Program-made: the position numbers and the translations under genes
Notes under the pieces: model-generated
What the model saw: the letters and a program-made list of their open reading frames with translations, nothing else
Told to the model about the DNA's origin: nothing
Databases searched by the model: none
Assembly: GCA_947629335.1 (NCBI GenBank)
Contig: CANRDI010000010.1
Location: 693-64,692, forward strand
Reading direction: 5' to 3'
Origin: an uncultured Clostridia bacterium
GTDB taxonomy: Bacteria > Bacillota > Clostridia > Oscillospirales > Ruminococcaceae
Length of the DNA: 64,000 nt
Shown: positions 1,681-64,000 of the stretch, one piece after another
Layout of the letters: each line of letters opens with the position of its first letter
Position numbering within the stretch: the stretch's first letter is position 1

Positions 1681-2251
1681 GCTGAGTAAGCGCAACGGTC
1701 TCATCTGCAAAAGTATCACATTCTTCCATGTCGTGAGTGACAAATATCACGGTCTTTCCTTTGACTTTTGTGCGGACATATTCCAAAACTGTTTCCTTTG
1801 TGTCAGCGTCAAGCCCTTTAAACGGCTCGTCAAGGAATAATATCTCGCTTTCTGCAAGCAGTGCGCGTACAATTGCCGCACGGCGTTTCATTCCCCCCGA
1901 AAGTTCTCGAACGGGTTTTTCGGGGCAATCTTTTAGCCCTACGGCACAAAGTTCTTTTTCAATTTCACTTTTTGTGAACCGTTTTCCCGTTACAAGCCGT
2001 ATATTTGCCGAAACCGTAAGATTTTCGCAAAGCCTGTCCTCCTGAAAAACTGCGCTTATCGGCTTGTCAAAACCGATAAGCGTTCCGCTGTCCGCGGGTA
2101 TAAGTCCCATTAAGACCGACAGGAGAGTTGTCTTTCCACAGCCCGACTGACCGACGAGCGCCGTGATTTTTCCCTCTTTGAAATCATGTGTGAAATTGTT
2201 CAGAACAATTTTATCAGAAAATGACTTACAGATATTTTCCGCTCTCGGCAT
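1673..2251 (-). CDS. ABC transporter ATP-binding protein (nitrate/sulfonate type)
   Basis: Walker A GQSGCGKT, VFQEDRL, LSGGMKRR signature, LDEPF Walker B, VTHD switch. Confidence 0.9.
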   Translation of the reverse strand: MPRAENICKSFSDKIVLNNFTHDFKEGKITALVGQSGCGKTTLLSVLMGLIPADSGTLIGFDKPISAVFQEDRLCENLTVSANIRLVTGKRFTKSEIEKELCAVGLKDCPEKPVRELSGGMKRRAAIVRALLAESEILFLDEPFKGLDADTKETVLEYVRTKVKGKTVIFVTHDMEECDTFADETVALTQLS

Positions 2252-2294
2252 TTTGTTCTCCTTTCGCGCGATCGTATGTTGATGTGAAATAATG

Positions 2295-3041
2295 TCACAT
2301 TCGCTCTATTTTCTTCTGCAAAATGCCGACAACAAGCAAAAACAACTTTTCGCACAATAAACTGAGCAGTATCACCGCCGCTGTCCAAGCAAACAAGTCG
2401 GCTGTTTCAAGGTAAATTTTGGACATAAACAGCTTTTCGCCTATCGAACCGTCGGGTATTCCTATGACCTCCGCCGCTGCTCCGGATTTCCACGAAAGTC
2501 CTATTGCAAGCGCCGACGCAGAGCGAAAATACGGCATAAGCTGCGATAAGTAAACTCCCGAAAATCTGCGTAATGCGGGAATTTTAAAAACTTTAGCCAT
2601 TTCCTTGAGCTTCGGGTCGAGACTGTCAATTCCCGCCTGCATATTTGAGCAGACAATGGGCGTGCAGATAAGAAACGTCACAAGTACCGACAGATTTTCC
2701 GACCTTATCCAAAACAATGCCAAAATAGTGAAAGAAGCAACGGGAATTGATTTCATAACCGAAATGAGCGGAGAAAAAATAATTCGTATAACGCGAAATT
2801 TTCCCATAAACACCGCTAAGACCGTTCCCGTTACAAGTCCTATAAAAAATCCGAGCATTATCCTGCACGAAGAAAACAGTATGCTCTGCCAGAAATCAGC
2901 AGTTATTATAAGCTCTCCGAGCCTTTTTATTACGTCAAGCGGAGATACAAGAAGTATGCTGCTGTCAATAGCGAGCGCCGCAACTTGCCATACTATCAGC
3001 CAGAACAGTATTCCCGCGCTTATCAATAACGCCTTTTTCAC
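2295..3041 (-). CDS. ABC transporter permease (SsuC/TauC-like)
   Basis: Hydrophobic helices with SIPVASF and SWKSGAAAEV motifs; lies between the binding-protein and ATPase genes. Confidence 0.88.
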   Translation of the reverse strand: MKKALLISAGILFWLIVWQVAALAIDSSILLVSPLDVIKRLGELIITADFWQSILFSSCRIMLGFFIGLVTGTVLAVFMGKFRVIRIIFSPLISVMKSIPVASFTILALFWIRSENLSVLVTFLICTPIVCSNMQAGIDSLDPKLKEMAKVFKIPALRRFSGVYLSQLMPYFRSASALAIGLSWKSGAAAEVIGIPDGSIGEKLFMSKIYLETADLFAWTAAVILLSLLCEKLFLLVVGILQKKIERM

Positions 3042-13596: not shown

Positions 13597-13616
13597 ACTG
13601 CTTTTAATGCTCGTAA

Positions 13617-13788
13617 AAATGATAGCACTCCATCAAGCAAGCCGATGACAGTCATACGCCTATTAAACGCACAACCGGATAACGCGCATATACGGACTGC
13701 GCGCTCCTCGGCGGTTCTGCCTTTTGCGGCGGCTTTCCGAAAAGCCTTTTTCGCCGCTACTCTTCATCACCGCGCCTCTACCTAAAGT
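13617..13788 (-). promoter_or_regulatory. Lysine riboswitch (L-box)
   Basis: GGTAGAGGCGCG..ATGAAGAGTAG..AAAGG..GCCGAG..AATA..GACTGTCA..TGGAGTGCTA; upstream of asd-dapA-dapB; promoter TTGACA-17-TAGAAT at 13791-13819. Confidence 0.9.
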
Positions 13789-30934: not shown

Positions 30935-31130
30935 ATAACTGCCTCCCCTGCTTCATAAATATACCGTTTTTCGTCAGATTGCTGTCCGAACAGACTTTCC
31001 GACAGCAGCTTGTACATAATATCATTTGCCGCTCATTTATGCTGCATCTCATGCAGCGCTTCCTAAAGATAATATACCTATCTATATGCACAAATAACCG
31101 TTTATGACCGAAAACAACTCGCTTCTTTGT

Positions 31131-31162
31131 AAAAAGTCGCCGCTCGGATCTCTCCGAGCGGT
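31131..31162 (-). terminator. Intrinsic terminator of rplK-rplA
   Basis: CCGCTCGGA-loop-TCCGAGCGG followed by a T-run. Confidence 0.75.
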
Positions 31163-31185
31163 GAAATTTATGCGCAAAAATCCCC

Positions 31186-31878
31186 TCACACACCAAAACG
31201 CAAAGTATTTACCTTTACGCCGGGGCCCATCGTCGAGGAAACGGTACAGCTCTTGATATACTGACCCTTTGTTGCGGCAGGCTTAGCCTTTGCTACAGCT
31301 TCCATAAGCGCGGAAAAATTCTCATTGAGCTTTTCCTTTCCGAATGAAGCCTTTCCTATCGGGCAGTGGATAATATTAGCCTTATCCAGACGATACTCTA
31401 TCTTACCTGCCTTAGCGTCCTGTACAGCCTTTGCTACATCAGGAGTTACAGTACCCGCCTTGGGGTTAGGCATAAGTCCTCTCGGACCGAGAACCTTACC
31501 GAGACGTCCTACAACGCCCATCATATCGGGAGTAGCTATAACTACCTCGAAATCCATCCAGCCGCCCTGAATTTTAGCGACAGTATCATTGTCCGCGATA
31601 TAATCTGCGCCCGCAGCCTTTGCGTCAGCTTCTTTTTCGGGCTTGCAGAATACAAGCGTTCTTACGGTCTTACCCGTGCCGTTCGGAAGAACGACCGCGC
31701 CGCGAACCTGCTGATCAGCGTGACGCGAGTCAACGCCCAGACGAACATGGATCTCAACTGTTTCGTCAAACTTAGCCTTTGCGGTCTTGCATACAAGATC
31801 AAGAGCCTCTTCAGACTCGTAAATCTTTGCGGAATCTATGAGCTTTGCGCTCTCAACATACTTTTTTCCGTGTTTCAT
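31186..31878 (-). CDS. rplA: 50S ribosomal protein L1
   Basis: [21 protein letters not shown] and [11 protein letters not shown]. Confidence 0.98.
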
Positions 31879-56277: not shown

Positions 56278-56406
56278 TTTATGTTGTCCTTTCTGTCTGT
56301 TTAGTTGTTGTTGTCAAAAAGCGTGATTTTTGTTTACGATGTGTTCTCTTTCATCATTTATAACGCCCCCTTTTCTTAATTATATCACGGAGCGTTTAAA
56401 ATGTCC

Positions 56407-56429
56407 AATATCATATATGAATAGTAGGC
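56407..56429 (-). promoter_or_regulatory. Putative sulfur-regulon operator, copy 1
   Basis: GCCTACTATTCATATATGATATT abuts the -35 (TGGACA-17-TATAAT) of the ABC-POR operon. Confidence 0.55.
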
Positions 56430-56481
56430 TATAAATAAAATCTATATCTTTTATATTTTTCAAAGCTTTTTGCTATACTCT

Positions 56482-57399: not shown

Positions 57400-57468
57400 A
57401 AAAATTCTCCTAGTTCCGCACTTGAAAATAAGCGGAATAAGTGTTATAATATATCCGAGGTGAAAAAA

Positions 57469-57891
57469 ATGAAAATTTCGACAAAAGGGCGCTATGCTCT
57501 GAGAATGTTGATTGACCTTGCCGAAAACGGCAATTCGGGTTATGTAGCGCTTAAAGATATTGCCGAAAGGCAGGGAATATCAAAAAAATATCTCGAACAG
57601 ATCGTGCCTATTTTAAGCCGCGGGAAAATTCTCAAAACAACGCGCGGATTTCAGGGCGGGTATATGCTGTCAGCTCCGCCCGAAAATTTCACGGTCGGAC
57701 AGATTTTAAGGCTTACAGAGGGAAGTCTTGCGCCCGTCGCGTGCGCGGAGTGTCCCGAAGATTGCGAGCGCAGCGGCGAATGTAAAACGCTTTGCATATG
57801 GCAGGGACTTAACCGCGTTATAAATGAATACCTTGACGGCATTACGCTGTCAGACGCCGTAAATCAAAACATAGCAATTGACGAAATTTAA
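57469..57891 (+). CDS. Rrf2 family transcriptional regulator with a Cys cluster
   Basis: MKISTKGRYALR, I...YLEQI, RG..GGY.L, EG.LAPV.C..C...C.....C; promoter TTGAAA-17-TATAAT at 57422-57450. Confidence 0.92.
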   Translation: MKISTKGRYALRMLIDLAENGNSGYVALKDIAERQGISKKYLEQIVPILSRGKILKTTRGFQGGYMLSAPPENFTVGQILRLTEGSLAPVACAECPEDCERSGECKTLCIWQGLNRVINEYLDGITLSDAVNQNIAIDEI

Positions 57892-58810: not shown

Positions 58811-59970
58811 TATTTTACCTCGCTTTCTTCAATTGCCCGCGACAGGTCGGCGATAATGTCGTCTGCGCTTTCAATTCCCACCGACAGCCTTATTAAGCCG
58901 TCTGTTATTCCGACCTTCTGACGCGTTTCATACGGAATTGACGCGTGCGTCATACTCGCGGGGTGGCAGATAAGGCTTTCCGCTCCGCCAAGGCTTTCCG
59001 CAAGCGCGATAAGTTTAAGCGACGAAAAGAACTTTTTGATGTCGTAATTTTCGTACAGCTCAAATGAGAGCATTGCGCCGCCGTTTTTCGCCTGTTTTTT
59101 GTTTATTTCATAGCCTTGCGCGTCGGGAAGTCCGGGATAGTACACCTTTTTCACAGCCTTGTGCTGTTTTAAAAATTCCGCAGCTTTTTTCGCATTTTCA
59201 ACGTGTCTGTCAAGCCTTACGCCGAGCGTTTTTATTCCTCTTATCAGCAAAAATGAGTCAAACGGACCGAGAACTCCTCCCGTTGCATTCTGAATAAACG
59301 CAAGTCTTTCGGAAAGGTTTTTGTCGTGTACAACAACTAATCCCGCGACAAGGTCGCTGTGACCGCCGAGATATTTTGTCGCGCTGTGAACGACAATGTC
59401 TATCCCCTGCTCTATAGGTCTTTGAAGATATGGCGTCATAAAGGTGTTGTCGGCAATTGACAGAATGTTGTGCCTTTTGGCAATGTCGGCTATTCCCTCA
59501 AGGTCTGTAATTGTAAGCAGAGGATTTGCGGGAGTTTCAATAAGTATCGCCTTTACGTCGGGCGTTATTTTTTTGTCCAACGCTTCAAGATCGGTCGTGT
59601 CCTCAATTGAATAGCCAATGCCGAAATTGCTGAATATTTTGTCGAGAACGCGGAAAGTACCGCCGTAGACGTTGCTTGAAATAAGTATCTTATCTCCCGT
59701 GTGAAACAGGCTTAAAACAGCCGTTATCGCCGCCATTCCAGAGCCGAACGCAAATCCCGCAGTTCCTCCCTCAAGCTCCGCGATAAGCGCCTCAAGCGCC
59801 GCGCGGGTGGGATTTCCCGTGCGCGAATATTCCCAGCCCGTGTTGTGTCCGAGTTCGGGCTGTTCAAAAGTCGAGGTCTGATAGATAGGGACGTTCACCG
59901 CGCCCGTCTTTTCGTCGCCGTAGATCCCGCCGTGAATAAGCGCGGACTCAATATCATTGTAGTTCTTCAT
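58810..59970 (-). CDS. mccB: Cystathionine gamma-lyase
   Basis: PIYQTSTF, YSRTGNPT, SGMAAI, ETPANP, DNTF, HSATKYLGGHSD and IRLSVGIE. Confidence 0.85.
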   Translation of the reverse strand: MKNYNDIESALIHGGIYGDEKTGAVNVPIYQTSTFEQPELGHNTGWEYSRTGNPTRAALEALIAELEGGTAGFAFGSGMAAITAVLSLFHTGDKILISSNVYGGTFRVLDKIFSNFGIGYSIEDTTDLEALDKKITPDVKAILIETPANPLLTITDLEGIADIAKRHNILSIADNTFMTPYLQRPIEQGIDIVVHSATKYLGGHSDLVAGLVVVHDKNLSERLAFIQNATGGVLGPFDSFLLIRGIKTLGVRLDRHVENAKKAAEFLKQHKAVKKVYYPGLPDAQGYEINKKQAKNGGAMLSFELYENYDIKKFFSSLKLIALAESLGGAESLICHPASMTHASIPYETRQKVGITDGLIRLSVGIESADDIIADLSRAIEESEVK

Positions 59971-59987
59971 AAAATTTCCTCCTGTTT

Positions 59988-60923
59988 TTAAATGTAAAGA
60001 GCATAGCTGTGATTGAAGCTGTCGCCCTTTTGTGCAAGCATAAAATGTACGTTTTCAAACGCCGTAAGGCTGTCGTTTCTGTCGCTGAAAAAACGACGCT
60101 GTATGTTTTTGGGAGGTTCGTGGGTGTTGATGATAAAGCCGTTTTGAGTTATCATCTCGCTTATTTCCTCCGCCGAATAACCGTATTTCATAGGTTCTCC
60201 GAGAAATGCCGTTATTTTTGAAAGCTCATAAACGCGCTCTGCGGCGTTTTCACCGAATGTTGTTTCATCGGGAAAATCAAAGCATAACATACTCCCGAAT
60301 GACGATGCGGACGCTATTTTACAAAGCGTTTCCGAAAGCGCATTCGGAGCAAGATAATACAAAACTCCGAGAAGCGCGAAAAACGACGGCTTTGACGGGT
60401 CAAATCCCGCTTTTATTAGCTCGGTAGGCATATCGTCTTTCATAAAATCGACCGCGGCAAATCGGACGTTTTTAGGGATATTCCAGCCGAGCTTTTTTAT
60501 CCTGTCCAGCTTATATTGCTGAGTATCGGGGTGGTCAATCTCAAAAACGAAGATTTTGTCGTTTGTGTTTCTGAAAGCAAAGGTGTCCATTCCCGCGCCG
60601 CAGATTACATACTGACAACTCCCGCGCTCAAATGCGAACCTTAAAAGCTCTCTTTCGGCAAACGCCGCCCTCGAAAGCGGAATAGGCGAAATAAGCCTGT
60701 CTAACTTTTCGCGGATATCCGCCCCGCAAAACGTATGCGACGGGTCGAAAAGCTCCGAGTGAAAATCGTGTTCTATAAGCTGTCCAATATCCTCGTATTC
60801 GTCCTTTCCCATTAAATCAAAAGCTAAATAGTCGTCGAAAATCTTTGCCTTTGCGAAATTCGAGTGATACGCCCGCGCGAAAGAGCAGAGCTTTGCGGTC
60901 GCGCTTTCCTGCAATTCAATCAT
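59988..60923 (-). CDS. Class I SAM-dependent methyltransferase (LCM/TIGR00027-like)
   Basis: SRAAFAE, QYVICGAG.DT.A.R, FEIDHP.TQ..K and F.AVDF; ATG at 60923 after GAAAGGA. Confidence 0.88.
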   Translation of the reverse strand: MIELQESATAKLCSFARAYHSNFAKAKIFDDYLAFDLMGKDEYEDIGQLIEHDFHSELFDPSHTFCGADIREKLDRLISPIPLSRAAFAERELLRFAFERGSCQYVICGAGMDTFAFRNTNDKIFVFEIDHPDTQQYKLDRIKKLGWNIPKNVRFAAVDFMKDDMPTELIKAGFDPSKPSFFALLGVLYYLAPNALSETLCKIASASSFGSMLCFDFPDETTFGENAAERVYELSKITAFLGEPMKYGYSAEEISEMITQNGFIINTHEPPKNIQRRFFSDRNDSLTAFENVHFMLAQKGDSFNHSYALYI

Positions 60924-60934
60924 AAAATTCCTTT

Positions 60935-61063
60935 CCGAACACAAAATTCCCGCTCGTTTCGTGCAATCCGATTTTGCAGAAAGAGCGGGAATTTCAGAGT
61001 TCATTCATTTGTCCTGTTTACTCAAAAAATGCCCGCTTGTATTTTTTACAACAACAAACGGGC
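60935..61063 (-). promoter_or_regulatory. Four-segment attenuator (1:2, 2:3 antiterminator, 3:4 terminator)
   Basis: Minus strand: seg1 GCCCGTTTGT (61054-63), seg2 ACAAGCGGGC (61031-40), seg3 AAATTCCCGCTC (60983-94), seg4 GAGCGGGAATTT (60944-55) then TGTGTT. AGCGGG of seg2 pairs with CCCGCT of seg3. Confidence 0.75.
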
Positions 61064-61131
61064 GCAGCAATGCCGCCGAGAATTTTACCCTCGGTTGTCG
61101 ATATTGCTAAAGCGGAAATTTTCATAGTCAT
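61018..61131 (-). CDS. Cys-rich leader peptide (37 aa, CCC at codons 26-28)
   Basis: AAGAGGT RBS right after the cysK stop; MTMKISALAISTTEGKILGGIAAPVCCCKKYKRAFFE; TGT TGT TGT at 61048-61056. Confidence 0.75.
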   Translation of the reverse strand: MTMKISALAISTTEGKILGGIAAPVCCCKKYKRAFFE

Positions 61132-61144
61132 AACAGTACCTCTT

Positions 61145-62062
61145 TTATTCGGAAAACATCGGAGTTGAAAGATAGCGTTCGCCTGTGTCGGGCAAAAGCA
61201 CAACGATTGTTTTGCCCTTGTTTTCGGAACGTTTGGAAAGTTCCGAAGCCGCGTAAACTGCCGCTCCGGATGAAATTCCAACAAGCAGACCCTCTTTTCT
61301 CGCGAGCATTCTGCCCGTTTCAAAAGCGTCCTCGTTTTCAACGGCGATTATCTCGTCGTATACGGACGTATTGAGCGTATCGGGAACAAATCCCGCGCCT
61401 ATGCCCTGAATTTTGTGAGGACCGGAAGTTCCCTTTGACAGCACGGGCGAACCCGCAGGCTCAACAGCGACGACCTTGATTTCGGGATTTTTGGATTTAA
61501 GATACTCGCCAACTCCCGTAACAGTGCCGCCCGTGCCTACTCCCGCGACGAAAATATCGACCTTTCCGTCGGTATCCTCCCATATTTCGGGACCCGTTGA
61601 AGCACGATGCGCGGCAGGGTTTGCGGGGTTTGTAAACTGGCTCGGAATAAAGCTTTTCGGCGTATTTTCGGCAAGTTCGCGCGCTTTTTCAATTGCGCCT
61701 TTCATGCCCTTTGCGCCCTCTGTCAGCACAACCTCCGCGCCATATGCTTTAAGCAAATTTCTGCGCTCAATGCTCATGGTTTCGGGCATTGTGAGGATTA
61801 TTCTGTATCCTCTCGCCGCCGCGACCGCCGCAAGCCCTATTCCCGTATTGCCGCTTGTCGGCTCGATAATGACCGAATCGGGTTTAAGAAGTCCTTTTGC
61901 CTCGGCGTCATCGATCATCGCCTTTGCAATTCTGTCCTTAACGCTGCCCGCGGGATTGAAATATTCAAGCTTTGCGTATATCTTCTTGTCTTTTCCAAGG
62001 CTTGAAAGCTTTAAAAGCGGCGTTTTGCCTATAAGGTCGGTTATTTTTTCATAGATTTTCAT
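61145..62062 (-). CDS. cysK: Cysteine synthase A
   Basis: [41 protein letters not shown] and [10 protein letters not shown]. Confidence 0.96.
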
Positions 62063-62086
62063 AGCAATTTCTCCTTATTAGCCTAT

Positions 62087-62137
62087 AATACCTATCTGTA
62101 TAGTAGTTATTATAGCACAATATATCAATTTTGTCAA
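62087..62137 (-). promoter_or_regulatory. cysK sigma-A promoter with operator copy 2 over the start site
   Basis: TTGACA-17-TATAAT (62109-62137) followed by AACTACTATACAGATAGGTATT (62087-62108). Confidence 0.7.
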
Positions 62138-62215
62138 TACCTAAATATAAATTTTCACATATTTTAGAAAATTTTTAACTGAAATGCAGTCGGGCTCGGG
62201 TTTAAGCCTGATTTT

Positions 62216-63298
62216 TTAATTGCAGGCGGCAGGAACGGGAAGCGCAGCTATTCGCCGCCTTAATTCCTCTTTTGAAACGTTGCAGGCGCGGCAATTCGGG
62301 TTTTTGCGACGGATATTTATTGTTCTCTCTTGCATTGAAAGTCCGTTTATTGTCCACAATTTTCCCGAAAGCAGCTCTCCCGCTCCTGTCAGATATTTTA
62401 TACATTCAAGTGCCTGAGTGCTGCCGATTATTCCCGCGATTGCTCCTATAACTCCCGCCTGAGAGCAATTCGGGACGTCGCCCGGAATGTCCTCGAACAA
62501 GCACCTTAAACACGGCGTATTTTCGGGAACATATGTCATAACCTGCCCGTCAAATCTTAAAATTCCGCCGAAGCAAAACGGCTTATCCAGAAGCACGCAC
62601 ACGTCGTTTATCAGAAACTTGGTTTCAAAATTGTCCGAGCCGTCGATAACGAAATCGTATTCGCTTATCAAATTTTCAGCGTTTTTCGGTGTAAGGCTGA
62701 AAGGATACGCCGTGATTTCAATCCCGGAATTCAGCGCAAGCAGATTTTCTTTTGCGGAGAGTGCTTTGTTTTTTCCTTCAAACGAAGTTTTGTGGAGGAT
62801 TTGACGCTGAAGATTTGAAATGCTCACAAAATCGCCGTCGATAATTCCGAGCTTGCCGACTCCCGCTCCTGCAAGATACAGCGCGGCAGGCGACCCAAGA
62901 CCTCCTGCCCCGACAATAAGCGCCGAGGAGTTTTTCAGCTTTTGCTGACCCTTATCGCCTATTTCGGGCAGAATTATCTGACGGTCATAACGCAAAAGTT
63001 CATTTTCCGAAAGGCTGTCAGAGCTGCCCGCAAGCCATTTCCGATAGCCTCCCGCAAGACTTTTTGCGTTAAATCCCTTCTCCGCTAACTTTTCGGCAAA
63101 CTCCGCACTTCTTTCGCCGACAGCGCAGTATAAAATTATGACTTTATTTTCGGGCAGGCAGTTGAAAACGTCCTCCCACAATACGGCGTTTGGAAGATGT
63201 CCGTTTTCAAACGCAGTCCTCCCGCGAATGTCAGCTAAAATATACTCGCTTTCATCAAGCCGCGAAAGCTCGTCACAAGTTATCTCAATAACGCTCAT
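62216..63298 (-). CDS. N-terminal rhodanese fused to a ThiF/MoeB adenylyltransferase
   Basis: ILYCAVGERS rhodanese loop; RYDRQI, VGAGGLG, D.V..SNLQRQ, DG.DNF, CLRC and CRAC Zn motifs. Confidence 0.9.
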   Translation of the reverse strand: MSVIEITCDELSRLDESEYILADIRGRTAFENGHLPNAVLWEDVFNCLPENKVIILYCAVGERSAEFAEKLAEKGFNAKSLAGGYRKWLAGSSDSLSENELLRYDRQIILPEIGDKGQQKLKNSSALIVGAGGLGSPAALYLAGAGVGKLGIIDGDFVSISNLQRQILHKTSFEGKNKALSAKENLLALNSGIEITAYPFSLTPKNAENLISEYDFVIDGSDNFETKFLINDVCVLLDKPFCFGGILRFDGQVMTYVPENTPCLRCLFEDIPGDVPNCSQAGVIGAIAGIIGSTQALECIKYLTGAGELLSGKLWTINGLSMQERTINIRRKNPNCRACNVSKEELRRRIAALPVPAACN

Positions 63299-63313
63299 TT
63301 CGTCAACACCCTA

Positions 63314-63378
63314 AATTCATATATACTTAGTAGATTAATTGCAAATTTAATTATACAATAATTATCAGGATTTGTCAA
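63314..63378 (-). promoter_or_regulatory. Promoter of the rhodanese-ThiF gene with operator copy 3
   Basis: TTGACA-17-TATAAT (63350-63378) and downstream ATCTACTAAGTATATATGAATT (63314-63335). Confidence 0.7.
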
Positions 63379-63602
63379 GAGGGGTGATAGTTTTATAATT
63401 GTAAGAAATAAGAGTTTGTACAAAAGCTTGTTACCATAATTGGGCAAATTCCTGTATAAAAGAAATAAGAGATAAGAATTTAAATTCTTACCTCTTAATT
63501 TCTAAATGTCTAACCTTTACAAAAAAGATTTTTTCGGTCGAGCCAAAAGAAATCGTCCCGCAACAGCGTGCGGGACGTACCGGCTGCAGGGCATTGCCCT
63601 GC

Positions 63603-63627
63603 TGGAGCTGGTGAACGGACTCGAACC
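63603..63627 (-). other. att-site-like 3' fragment of a tRNA-Thr
   Basis: GGTTCGAGTCCGTTCACCAGCTCCA = T-loop, acceptor 3' strand and CCA; 5' part of the tRNA absent; GC hairpins follow as expected for a tRNA 3' flank. Confidence 0.75.
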
Positions 63628-63673
63628 CCGACCATGTGTTGTTGGTAAGGAGACTCAATTCTTGATGTTCGCT

Positions 63674-64000
63674 TTATGGCGTGTTCAATTTTCCGATAAA
63701 CCTGTAAAATATCTCGATTTGCTGATATGTTCTGCCGTCATCGGATTTTTCCTTGTGGTGAACCACAATTTTATCGATCAACTCGTTGAGGATTGCCGCG
63801 TCAAGCTTTTCGACATTTGTATACTTGCGTATCACATTGATGAACTTAGCCGCACAGTCGGAATTGCTTTTCAGCTTCTCAAGCCGTACTGAAAGTTCCG
63901 AGAGAGACTACCTGATTTCTGCTTGTTCGGTTTCGTATTCGCTTGCCATACGTTCATAACGGCTGTCGGGTATTTTGCCAAGCGCGTTGTTCTCATACAG
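63674..64000 (-). pseudogene. C-terminus of a large serine recombinase (TnpX/DUF4368-like) with a premature stop; truncated by the window edge
   Basis: LYE....G.I...RY..M...YE.EQ..I R* ...KYT.VEKL...ILNELIDKIVVH.....G..YQQIEIFYRFIG; TAG at 63908-63910. Confidence 0.85.

Follow-up and report, generated by a model that had tools for sequence, protein, structure and literature searches.

The element examined here is a short leader open reading frame (ORF) with a run of cysteine (Cys) codons and an associated set of RNA hairpins, which lies between cysK and a methyltransferase-mccB-mccA gene cluster in an uncultured Clostridia bacterium of the Ruminococcaceae. The whole stretch of DNA analyzed, 64,000 nucleotides (nt) of contig CANRDI010000010.1, is referred to as the window; all coordinates are window positions, and every feature of the cysK–mccA region is on the minus strand. 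The gene order is cysK, leader, methyltransferase, mccB and mccA, with the following features:

62137-62109, minus strand: cysK promoter, TTGACA-17-TATAAT with TG (12/12 consensus match)
62062-61145, minus strand: cysK, O-acetylserine sulfhydrylase (TIGR01139, 476.9 bits, above the cut-off), with the stop TAA at 61147-61145
61144-61139, minus strand: leader ribosome-binding site AAGAGG, starting directly after the cysK stop
61131-61018, minus strand: leader ORF of 37 codons plus stop (ATG at 61131, stop TAA at 61020-61018), peptide MTMKISALAISTTEGKILGGIAAPVCCCKKYKRAFFE
61063-61031, minus strand: hairpin 1:2, 10 base pairs (bp) including one G-U, -16.3 kcal/mol
61056-61048, minus strand: proposed sensing codons TGT TGT TGT, the only Cys codons of the ORF, the first of them inside segment 1
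61037-60984, minus strand: predicted antiterminator 2:3, 11 bp with one mismatch, -15.2 kcal/mol
60993-60945, minus strand: stem-loop of the intrinsic terminator 3:4, -25.3 kcal/mol, with the U-rich tail UUGUGUU at 60944-60938
60936-60929, minus strand: methyltransferase ribosome-binding site GGAAAGGA
60923-59988, minus strand: S-adenosylmethionine (SAM)-dependent methyltransferase of the LCM/TIGR00027 type, the predicted first gated gene, with its ATG at 60923
59970-58810, minus strand: mccB-like gene for a cystathionine gamma-lyase/homocysteine desulfhydrase (PF01053)
58810-57902, minus strand: mccA-like gene for a cystathionine beta-synthase-type pyridoxal phosphate enzyme (PF00291)

The top NCBIfam match of the mccB-like gene was NF005810 (559 bits, under the equivalog cut-off of 594), and that of the mccA-like gene was cysta_beta (333.6 bits, under its cut-off).

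The sequence-only reading of this region had described a ribosome-binding site immediately after the cysK stop, a 37-residue ORF whose only Cys residues come from three adjacent TGT codons, an overlap of these codons with segment 1 and a 10-bp stem 1:2, all of which were confirmed. The leader ATG is 13 nt from the cysK stop. In hairpin 1:2, segment 1 GCCCGUUUGU (61063-61054), which contains the first TGT, pairs with segment 2 ACAAGCGGGC (61040-61031), and A+U6 (61030-61024) follows directly 3' of the hairpin. The 2:3 pairing had been given as AGCGGG/CCCGCT; its mutual exclusion with both 1:2 and 3:4 held, but the helix is longer than proposed, joining AGCGGGCAUUUU (61037-61026) with GAAAUUCCCGCU (60995-60984), and the U run after hairpin 1:2 belongs to this helix in the window. 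The terminator 3:4 and its U-rich tract were found ahead of the methyltransferase gene, as had been claimed, and the methyltransferase ribosome-binding site lies outside the 3:4 stem and is not sequestered. The 236-nt spacer folded at -74.5 kcal/mol (z = -5.4 against 200 dinucleotide shuffles). The start of the 2:3 arm is 19 nt downstream of the first Cys codon, so that a ribosome stalled at this codon, with an assumed footprint of about 12-15 nt downstream of its A site, would mask segment 1 and leave segment 2 free.

A promoter scan upstream of the leader identified the cysK promoter as the only strong promoter able to feed the leader and the downstream operon, and the methyltransferase ATG follows the terminator by only 21 nt, too few for another. 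Thus, expression of the operon requires read-through of the terminator. It should be noted that short intergenic ORFs with three consecutive Cys codons are not in themselves rare, as a crude scan of the genome found several others. With a threshold of at least 3 Cys in 8 codons, the genome-wide scan returned 94 intergenic ORFs; six were inspected, and none of these was ahead of a sulfur gene or had attenuator anatomy. No Cys ribulon was found in the genome. The significance of the leader rests on its position, structure and conservation, rather than on the Cys run alone.

A DNA search with the 301-nt spacer in 61 related genomes recovered only the 3' end of cysK and no leader similarity to the window. 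Because the spacer had no DNA similarity, relatives were gathered through the methyltransferase protein, with a profile scan that was limited to one genome per species and returned 80 named loci. Within the same genus and order, every locus with the methyltransferase and mccB had a Cys-rich mini-ORF just upstream, with leader peptides such as ..APVCCCCKNTSG.. in the sister species (L020), ..NNCCLCCNDTGGCLLCA in L015, ..NNICCSACCKCSGG.. in L016, ..SCCLCCCCGTGG.. in L022 and ..ACCFCRNSTAYCC.. in L024. The window peptide, ..LGGIAAPVCCC.., could be aligned with ..FGGIAAPSVCCCMCCTDTGG.. of L073 and with the leader peptides of other relatives. About 68 of the 80 named loci contained an ORF with a Cys cluster that ended about 75-135 nt before the methyltransferase gene; 67 of these matched the family model R1, as did L015, L016 and L021-L023. 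At least four Cys within eight codons of a short ORF were found in 59 of 78 upstream regions, compared to 0 of 78 reverse complements and 5 of 1560 shuffles. The relatives have 3-7 Cys codons (median 5) before segment 2. In the family members that were examined, the UGY triplets share the frame of the ATG, which is conserved together with its Shine-Dalgarno sequence.

The genomic context is also shared. cysK is immediately upstream in 53 of the 80 loci, which makes it the family norm, and the leader ATG follows its stop at a median distance of 17 nt, with 12-25 nt in most members. The motif AAGAGGTA is found ahead of the leader ATG in 25 relatives, often overlapping the cysK stop, and in many loci this stop overlaps the leader Shine-Dalgarno sequence as in TAAGAGGT. 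A G+C-rich stem followed by a U run is found about 20-50 nt before the gene in most of 73 loci.

The carriers are mostly metagenome-assembled genomes (MAGs) from rumen and gut, assigned to Ruminococcus, Oscillospiraceae, Lachnospiraceae and Christensenellales; four are cultured (Eubacterium oxidoreducens DSM 3217, Bianquea renquensis NSJ-32, Ruminiclostridium sufflavum DSM 19573 and Ruminococcus sp. JE7B6). The leader (MLQKMFSCCCFCCCKGRRVCCA) and the operon are also found together in two Treponema MAGs of rumen or faecal origin, at 2328-2457 of L101 and 2223-2354 of L114 (both plus strand), which suggests either cross-phylum transfer of a regulated module or mis-binning. The sister species has an intact leader with four Cys codons, compared to three in the window, while its methyltransferase gene (L020 1400-1700, minus strand) is cut after about 54 codons and mccB begins at about residue 164; this break looks like a deletion or a misassembly. 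In many other loci, 0.5-1.7 kb separate the methyltransferase gene and mccB.

Some loci have no leader. In L059 (1442-1528) and L103 (1099-1119; both plus strand), cysK abuts the methyltransferase gene, with gaps of about 85 and 20 nt, respectively, and neither leader nor terminator is present; these are natural variants without the attenuator. The loci without a leader (L040, L044, L045, L090, L092, L059 and L103) gave no match to the covariance model R2, which is described below, or to Rfam. Three Selenomonas loci (L097, L105 and L108, at about 2080-2390, plus strand) have an ORF of about 80 codons with 2-3 Cys (..MCCMCSWYSCRSGG..), longer than in the family; their strong terminator is located about 120 nt upstream of the methyltransferase gene. 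They did not match the family model and were kept out of the family, and their ORFs may represent an independent or very divergent Cys leader.

Conservation of the Cys run and of the hairpins in orthologous loci had been set beforehand as a test of the attenuator interpretation. In addition to the Cys clusters in 59 of 78 upstream regions, the three helices were 85-88% paired across 58-68 sequences, and compensatory changes were present in 1:2, 3:4 and 2:3. Two alignments were used for these measurements: A2, made with MAFFT from 58 leaders, and A4, guided by a model without the 2:3 helix and containing 68 leaders. Helix 1:2 was paired at 87.5% on A2 (87.5-94.6% across alignments). Helix 3:4 was paired at 84.9% on A2 (84.9-87.8% across alignments) and had 10 pairs with double changes. 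The antiterminator 2:3 was paired at 84.7% on A2 and 86.3% on A4, with 7 of 10 pairs doubly changed. Controls in which the partner strand was slid were paired at 37-51% for the A2 helices and 32-48% for 2:3, and 0 of 500 shuffles reached the observed percent paired or covariation score, although both kinds of control are somewhat inflated by the relatedness of the sequences and the reading of the helices from one member. Segments 2, 3 and 4 vary together in L049 (GGUGG/CCACC), L062, L080, L099 and the window lineage (AGCGGG/CCCGCU). On A2, segments 2 and 3 are separated by one more hairpin, with double changes at 8 of 8 pairs. Thus, the Cys cluster, the ribosome-binding site and the terminator are conserved, and the three helices are conserved with covariation.

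The covariance model R2 was built from 68 leaders, with the window and the sister species L020 left out. Its match in the window is:

60939-61068, minus strand: R2 match over the full model (1-145), 34.3 bits, E 2.1e-7

R2 also found L020 at 47.5 bits, and its other matches in the window had E values of 0.03 or worse. From these comparisons, the element is not peculiar to the genome of the window; rather, the window copy is a divergent, Cys-poor member of a large family.

In the family, 21-30 nt (median 24) separate the first Cys codon from segment 2, and about 9 nt separate the last one from it; these positions, like that in the window, would allow a stalled ribosome of the assumed footprint to mask segment 1 and leave segment 2 free. 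The median energies are -13.2 kcal/mol for 1:2, -21.4 kcal/mol for 2:3 with the inner hairpin and -21.2 kcal/mol for 3:4. The leader stop varies in position, between 16 nt upstream and 65 nt downstream of the end of segment 2. This geometry and these energies fit a ribosome that stalls on the first Cys codons and, after read-through, lets 1:2 re-form behind it. The relative helix energies resemble those of trp. The minimum-energy fold of L083, a Ruminococcus locus, pairs 2:3 and 1:4, because segment 1 resembles segment 3 and segment 2 resembles segment 4; this fold was not used as a structure.

Given this anatomy and its conservation, we consider the element a probable leader-peptide transcription attenuator of the ribosome-mediated kind, with charged tRNA-Cys as its signal, within one transcription unit, between cysK and methyltransferase-mccB-mccA. 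The trp/his-type interpretation in the sequence-only reading is supported by the Cys cluster, the helices and the leave-out model. In the window are found the parts known from classical leader-peptide attenuators: a separate ribosome-binding site and start codon, a Cys cluster, a terminator, an antiterminator exclusive with it and a suitable placement of the codons. What we infer is that the ribosome stalls, that 2:3 and 3:4 compete kinetically and that the switch responds to cysteine.

In the proposed mechanism, transcription from the cysK promoter would run into the leader. When cysteine is plentiful, the ribosome would pass the three Cys codons, and either 1:2 would re-form behind it or segment 2 would be covered by the ribosome at the stop 10 nt downstream; segment 3 would then pair with segment 4, and RNA polymerase would terminate near 60944-60938, before the methyltransferase gene. 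When Cys-tRNA is scarce, the ribosome would stall with a Cys codon in its A site and cover segment 1, so that segment 2, 19 nt downstream, would be free to pair with the emerging segment 3; the terminator would not form and the operon would be transcribed. Without translation, both 1:2 and 3:4 would form, with termination as the default. The attenuator would thereby split a single transcription unit, in which cysK would always be transcribed and the salvage route only when Cys-tRNA is short.

The genes behind the leader in one relative are consistent in content with such a route. L083 2495-5133 (plus strand), from a Ruminococcus MAG, encodes a 704-residue protein in which an LCM-type methyltransferase is fused to a complete SAM synthetase (MetK); LuxS follows the fusion, and then mccB and mccA, so that nearly the whole route from methionine (Met) to Cys lies behind one Cys leader. 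This gene set confirms that the gated genes run from Met through SAM, S-adenosylhomocysteine, homocysteine and cystathionine to Cys.

Several points weigh against the attenuator interpretation. With segment 1 masked by a ribosome footprint placed over the Cys codons, equilibrium folding of the full leader still yielded the terminator and not the antiterminator; folding with segment 1 constrained, a check suggested with the sequence-only reading, gave no support for the switch, which must be kinetic, as in trp. The antiterminator of the window (-15.2 kcal/mol) is much weaker than the terminator (-25.3 kcal/mol), and hairpin 1:2 of the window lineage, trailed by U6, could terminate or pause transcription alone. 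The window copy is also a weak member of the family, with three Cys codons and a score of 34 bits against the 50-120 bits typical with R1, and the relatedness noted above makes the controls for the helices less severe. Finally, RNA polymerase of Bacillus subtilis outruns the ribosome, which would disfavor the mechanism if it were also the case in Clostridia.

Other explanations of the same anatomy were weighed against this evidence. The hairpins might be tandem intrinsic terminators of cysK beside a chance 37-codon ORF, with the downstream genes expressed through leak-through or from an unrecognized promoter. Both 1:2 with its A+U6 and 3:4 with its U-rich tail are indeed terminator-like, and short intergenic ORFs with CCC arise several times by chance in the genome. 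However, the ORF, the AAGAGG and the in-frame Cys cluster recur in about 70 orthologous and otherwise diverged loci; the 2:3 complementarity is kept with compensatory changes, for which plain terminators have no need; there is no room for a promoter after the terminator; and the U run after 1:2 is limited to a few lineages and is part of the antiterminator in the window. We regard this explanation as extremely unlikely. It is very unlikely, too, that the ORF encodes a functional Cys-rich small peptide, such as a metal or redox binder, a modified-peptide precursor or a methyl acceptor, while the hairpins serve ordinary roles in transcript end formation or stability. The peptides share residues beyond the Cys cluster (AE.., F/S-G and TGG), and fourteen members, the only ones called in a collection of 5.8 billion proteins, are in public data, where the named ones are all hypothetical proteins. 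The conserved TGG after the Cys run, however, corresponds to the strand ACAGGCGG, which is RNA segment 2; in L052 and L104, where the ORF ends upstream of this strand, it is kept nonetheless. Between the window and L020 there is a frameshift directly after the Cys codons, which changes the C-terminus, with the hairpins kept in both; the varying position of the stop relative to segment 2 and the absence of third-position relaxation or periodicity in the N-terminal codons of 25 close relatives likewise speak against a conserved product. No Pfam domain was detected among the 14 called peptides, four leader peptides gave no match in Pfam and NCBIfam (SCIFF included), and no gene for a maturation enzyme is adjacent. 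These observations point to a constraint on the RNA and the Cys codons, and not on the peptide product. A SCIFF or modified-peptide precursor was specifically considered and rejected, given the lack of a SCIFF model match and the neighboring cysK and methyltransferase genes. A SCIFF-type six-cysteine peptide (..GGCGKCQSSCQSACKTSCTVANQKC.., with the GGCGKCQSSCQSACKTSC motif) is encoded elsewhere in the genome, on contig C15 at 31031-31231 (plus strand), and is unrelated to the leader.

A switch that works without the ribosome, with tRNA-Cys, a metabolite or a protein (for example, the local Rrf2 regulator) as its ligand, would account for the UGY-rich strand as a structural element only, as the UGY repeats are required in any case for pairing with the ACAGGCGG strand, and such operons in Firmicutes are usually under T-boxes or riboswitches (PMC2566862). 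Rfam 15, however, gave no T-box in the window at gathering score, no T-box, S-box or other match in 59800-64000 even at E up to 10, and no match of any kind in 20 related loci at gathering thresholds; a T-box (RF00230) or S-box reading was therefore rejected. Moreover, conserved loops or junctions that could form a ligand pocket are missing, conservation being located in four mutually complementary strands, and the UGY triplets are in frame with the conserved ATG and Shine-Dalgarno sequence. A ribosome-independent switch therefore seems highly improbable. The leader might also sense Cys-tRNA and act on Rho access, mRNA decay or downstream translation instead of intrinsic termination. Translation is the target of the short Cys ORFs of mycobacteria (bioRxiv 10.1101/834739), and no terminators accompany the Cys leaders of actinobacteria (PMC1262725). 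The G+C-rich stem with an immediate U run is nevertheless kept in most of the 73 loci, and the 3:4 stem of the window does not include the methyltransferase ribosome-binding site, which makes such an output very unlikely.

The leader ATG is close to the cysK stop, and this stop often overlaps the leader Shine-Dalgarno sequence, which would make a direct hand-over of ribosomes possible. We suggest, tentatively and as a doubtful extension of the attenuator mechanism, that ribosomes ending cysK may be passed to the leader by termination-reinitiation and so stay close behind RNA polymerase, in which case the family could be natural evidence of transcription-translation coupling in these Clostridia. 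If this hand-over is true, coupling would operate in these Clostridia, unlike the situation reported for B. subtilis, and the leaders would be a ready-made coupling reporter; one promoter would also serve two tiers of sulfur assimilation, with cysK always expressed and Met-to-Cys salvage only at Cys-tRNA shortage.

Compared with known systems, the element resembles the classical attenuators (E. coli trpL, Salmonella hisL, thrL, leuL and pheL; Rfam Trp_leader and His_leader) in its short ORF with a run of codons for the end product, its 1:2, 2:3 and 3:4 helices, its intrinsic terminator and the location of the regulatory codons in segment 1. It differs from them in that it would sense Cys, is found in Clostridia and relatives rather than in Proteobacteria, has neither sequence similarity to those leaders nor an Rfam match, and is usually located within an operon, directly after cysK, instead of at the 5' end; typical family members also add a hairpin between segments 2 and 3.

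In Clostridium acetobutylicum, the ubiG-mccB-mccA operon is controlled by a Cys T-box together with an S-box antisense system (PMC2566862). The Cys T-boxes of this operon in C. acetobutylicum and C. perfringens (PMC2566862; PMC2940859) share with the element the pathway, the charging of tRNA-Cys as the signal and antitermination before the first gene. In the window, however, no T-box was detected and the proposed sensor is a translating ribosome. The sequence-only reading had called the two operons homologous, which does not extend to the first gene: it is of the LCM/TIGR00027 type and is analogous, not homologous, to UbiG.

Runs of Cys codons upstream of cysteine-metabolism genes are also known from actinobacteria. 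For the leaderless poly-Cys short ORFs of mycobacteria an action on translation has been shown (Canestrari et al.; bioRxiv 10.1101/834739), and other actinobacterial Cys leader ORFs were predicted without terminators (PMC1262725). In both cases, and in our proposal for the element, stalling relieves repression. The mycobacterial and actinobacterial ORFs, however, are leaderless, have no intrinsic terminators and unmask a downstream ribosome-binding site, whereas the element in the window has a Shine-Dalgarno sequence, a terminator with a U tract and an unsequestered downstream ribosome-binding site, and lies inside an operon. A predicted Cys attenuator with a terminator, uORFC-8-2, is located upstream of cysS in Rhodobacterales (PMC8632094). 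It likewise has tandem Cys codons in the first stem and a 3' terminator, but it belongs to a different phylum, precedes a tRNA synthetase gene, has two Cys codons and is unrelated in sequence. Leader ORFs that control intrinsic terminators are also found in the same phylum as the element, in the drug-sensing systems bmrB-bmrCD (PMC4191407), vmlR (PMC9226507) and mef/mel (PMC4335068) and in a His leader predicted for hisZ/hisS paralogues in bacilli (PMC2965389). The former, however, sense ribosomes stalled by an antibiotic and not an amino acid, and the latter is specific for another amino acid and unrelated in sequence.

Rfam 15, Pfam and NCBIfam contain no such family, and a Cys leader-peptide attenuator in Firmicutes was not found in the full-text literature, which did not cover most subscription journals, so that a prior description is possible. 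The mechanism is thus classical, whereas its widespread family in Clostridia is apparently undescribed.

Firmicutes are the textbook users of T-boxes and riboswitches for amino-acid control, and amino-acid-sensing leader peptides are regarded as rare in this phylum. B. subtilis, furthermore, is reported to uncouple transcription from translation (runaway transcription), which should disable such a switch. If the attenuator interpretation is correct, the same operon would be under a Cys T-box in C. acetobutylicum and under a ribosome-read switch in other lineages, and the family would allow transcription-translation coupling in anaerobic Firmicutes to be tested in a natural system. It would also bear on the sulfur amino-acid economy of rumen bacteria, in which cysK would be constitutive or repressor-controlled and Met-to-Cys salvage would be used only when charged tRNA-Cys falls. 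There is a gain for annotation as well, as most of the mini-ORFs have been left uncalled or labeled hypothetical and Rfam has no family for the RNA.

The surroundings of the operon contain further genes and sites of possible relevance to its control. Beyond mccA lies a divergent regulator gene:

57460-57891, divergent from mccA: Rrf2 regulator gene

Directly upstream of cysK, a gene for a rhodanese-ThiF/MoeB fusion (62216-63298, minus strand) has its own consensus promoter (63378-63350), and this fusion gene, together with the Rrf2 and LysR regulators, indicates a sulfur-metabolism neighborhood. A lysine riboswitch at 13615-13788 (minus strand, 94.6 bits) is the only Rfam family at gathering score in the window. 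The motif CTACTA-N3-4-(C/T)A(T/G)ATA(T/G)G(A/T)A is common to three promoter regions (56400-56436, 62080-62115 and 63307-63342, minus strand), which precede a binding-protein operon, cysK and the ThiF/rhodanese gene, respectively; at cysK it is located just downstream of the -10 box. This motif is a possible operator for the neighboring Rrf2 or LysR regulator, in which case transcription would be controlled at initiation as well as by the attenuator.

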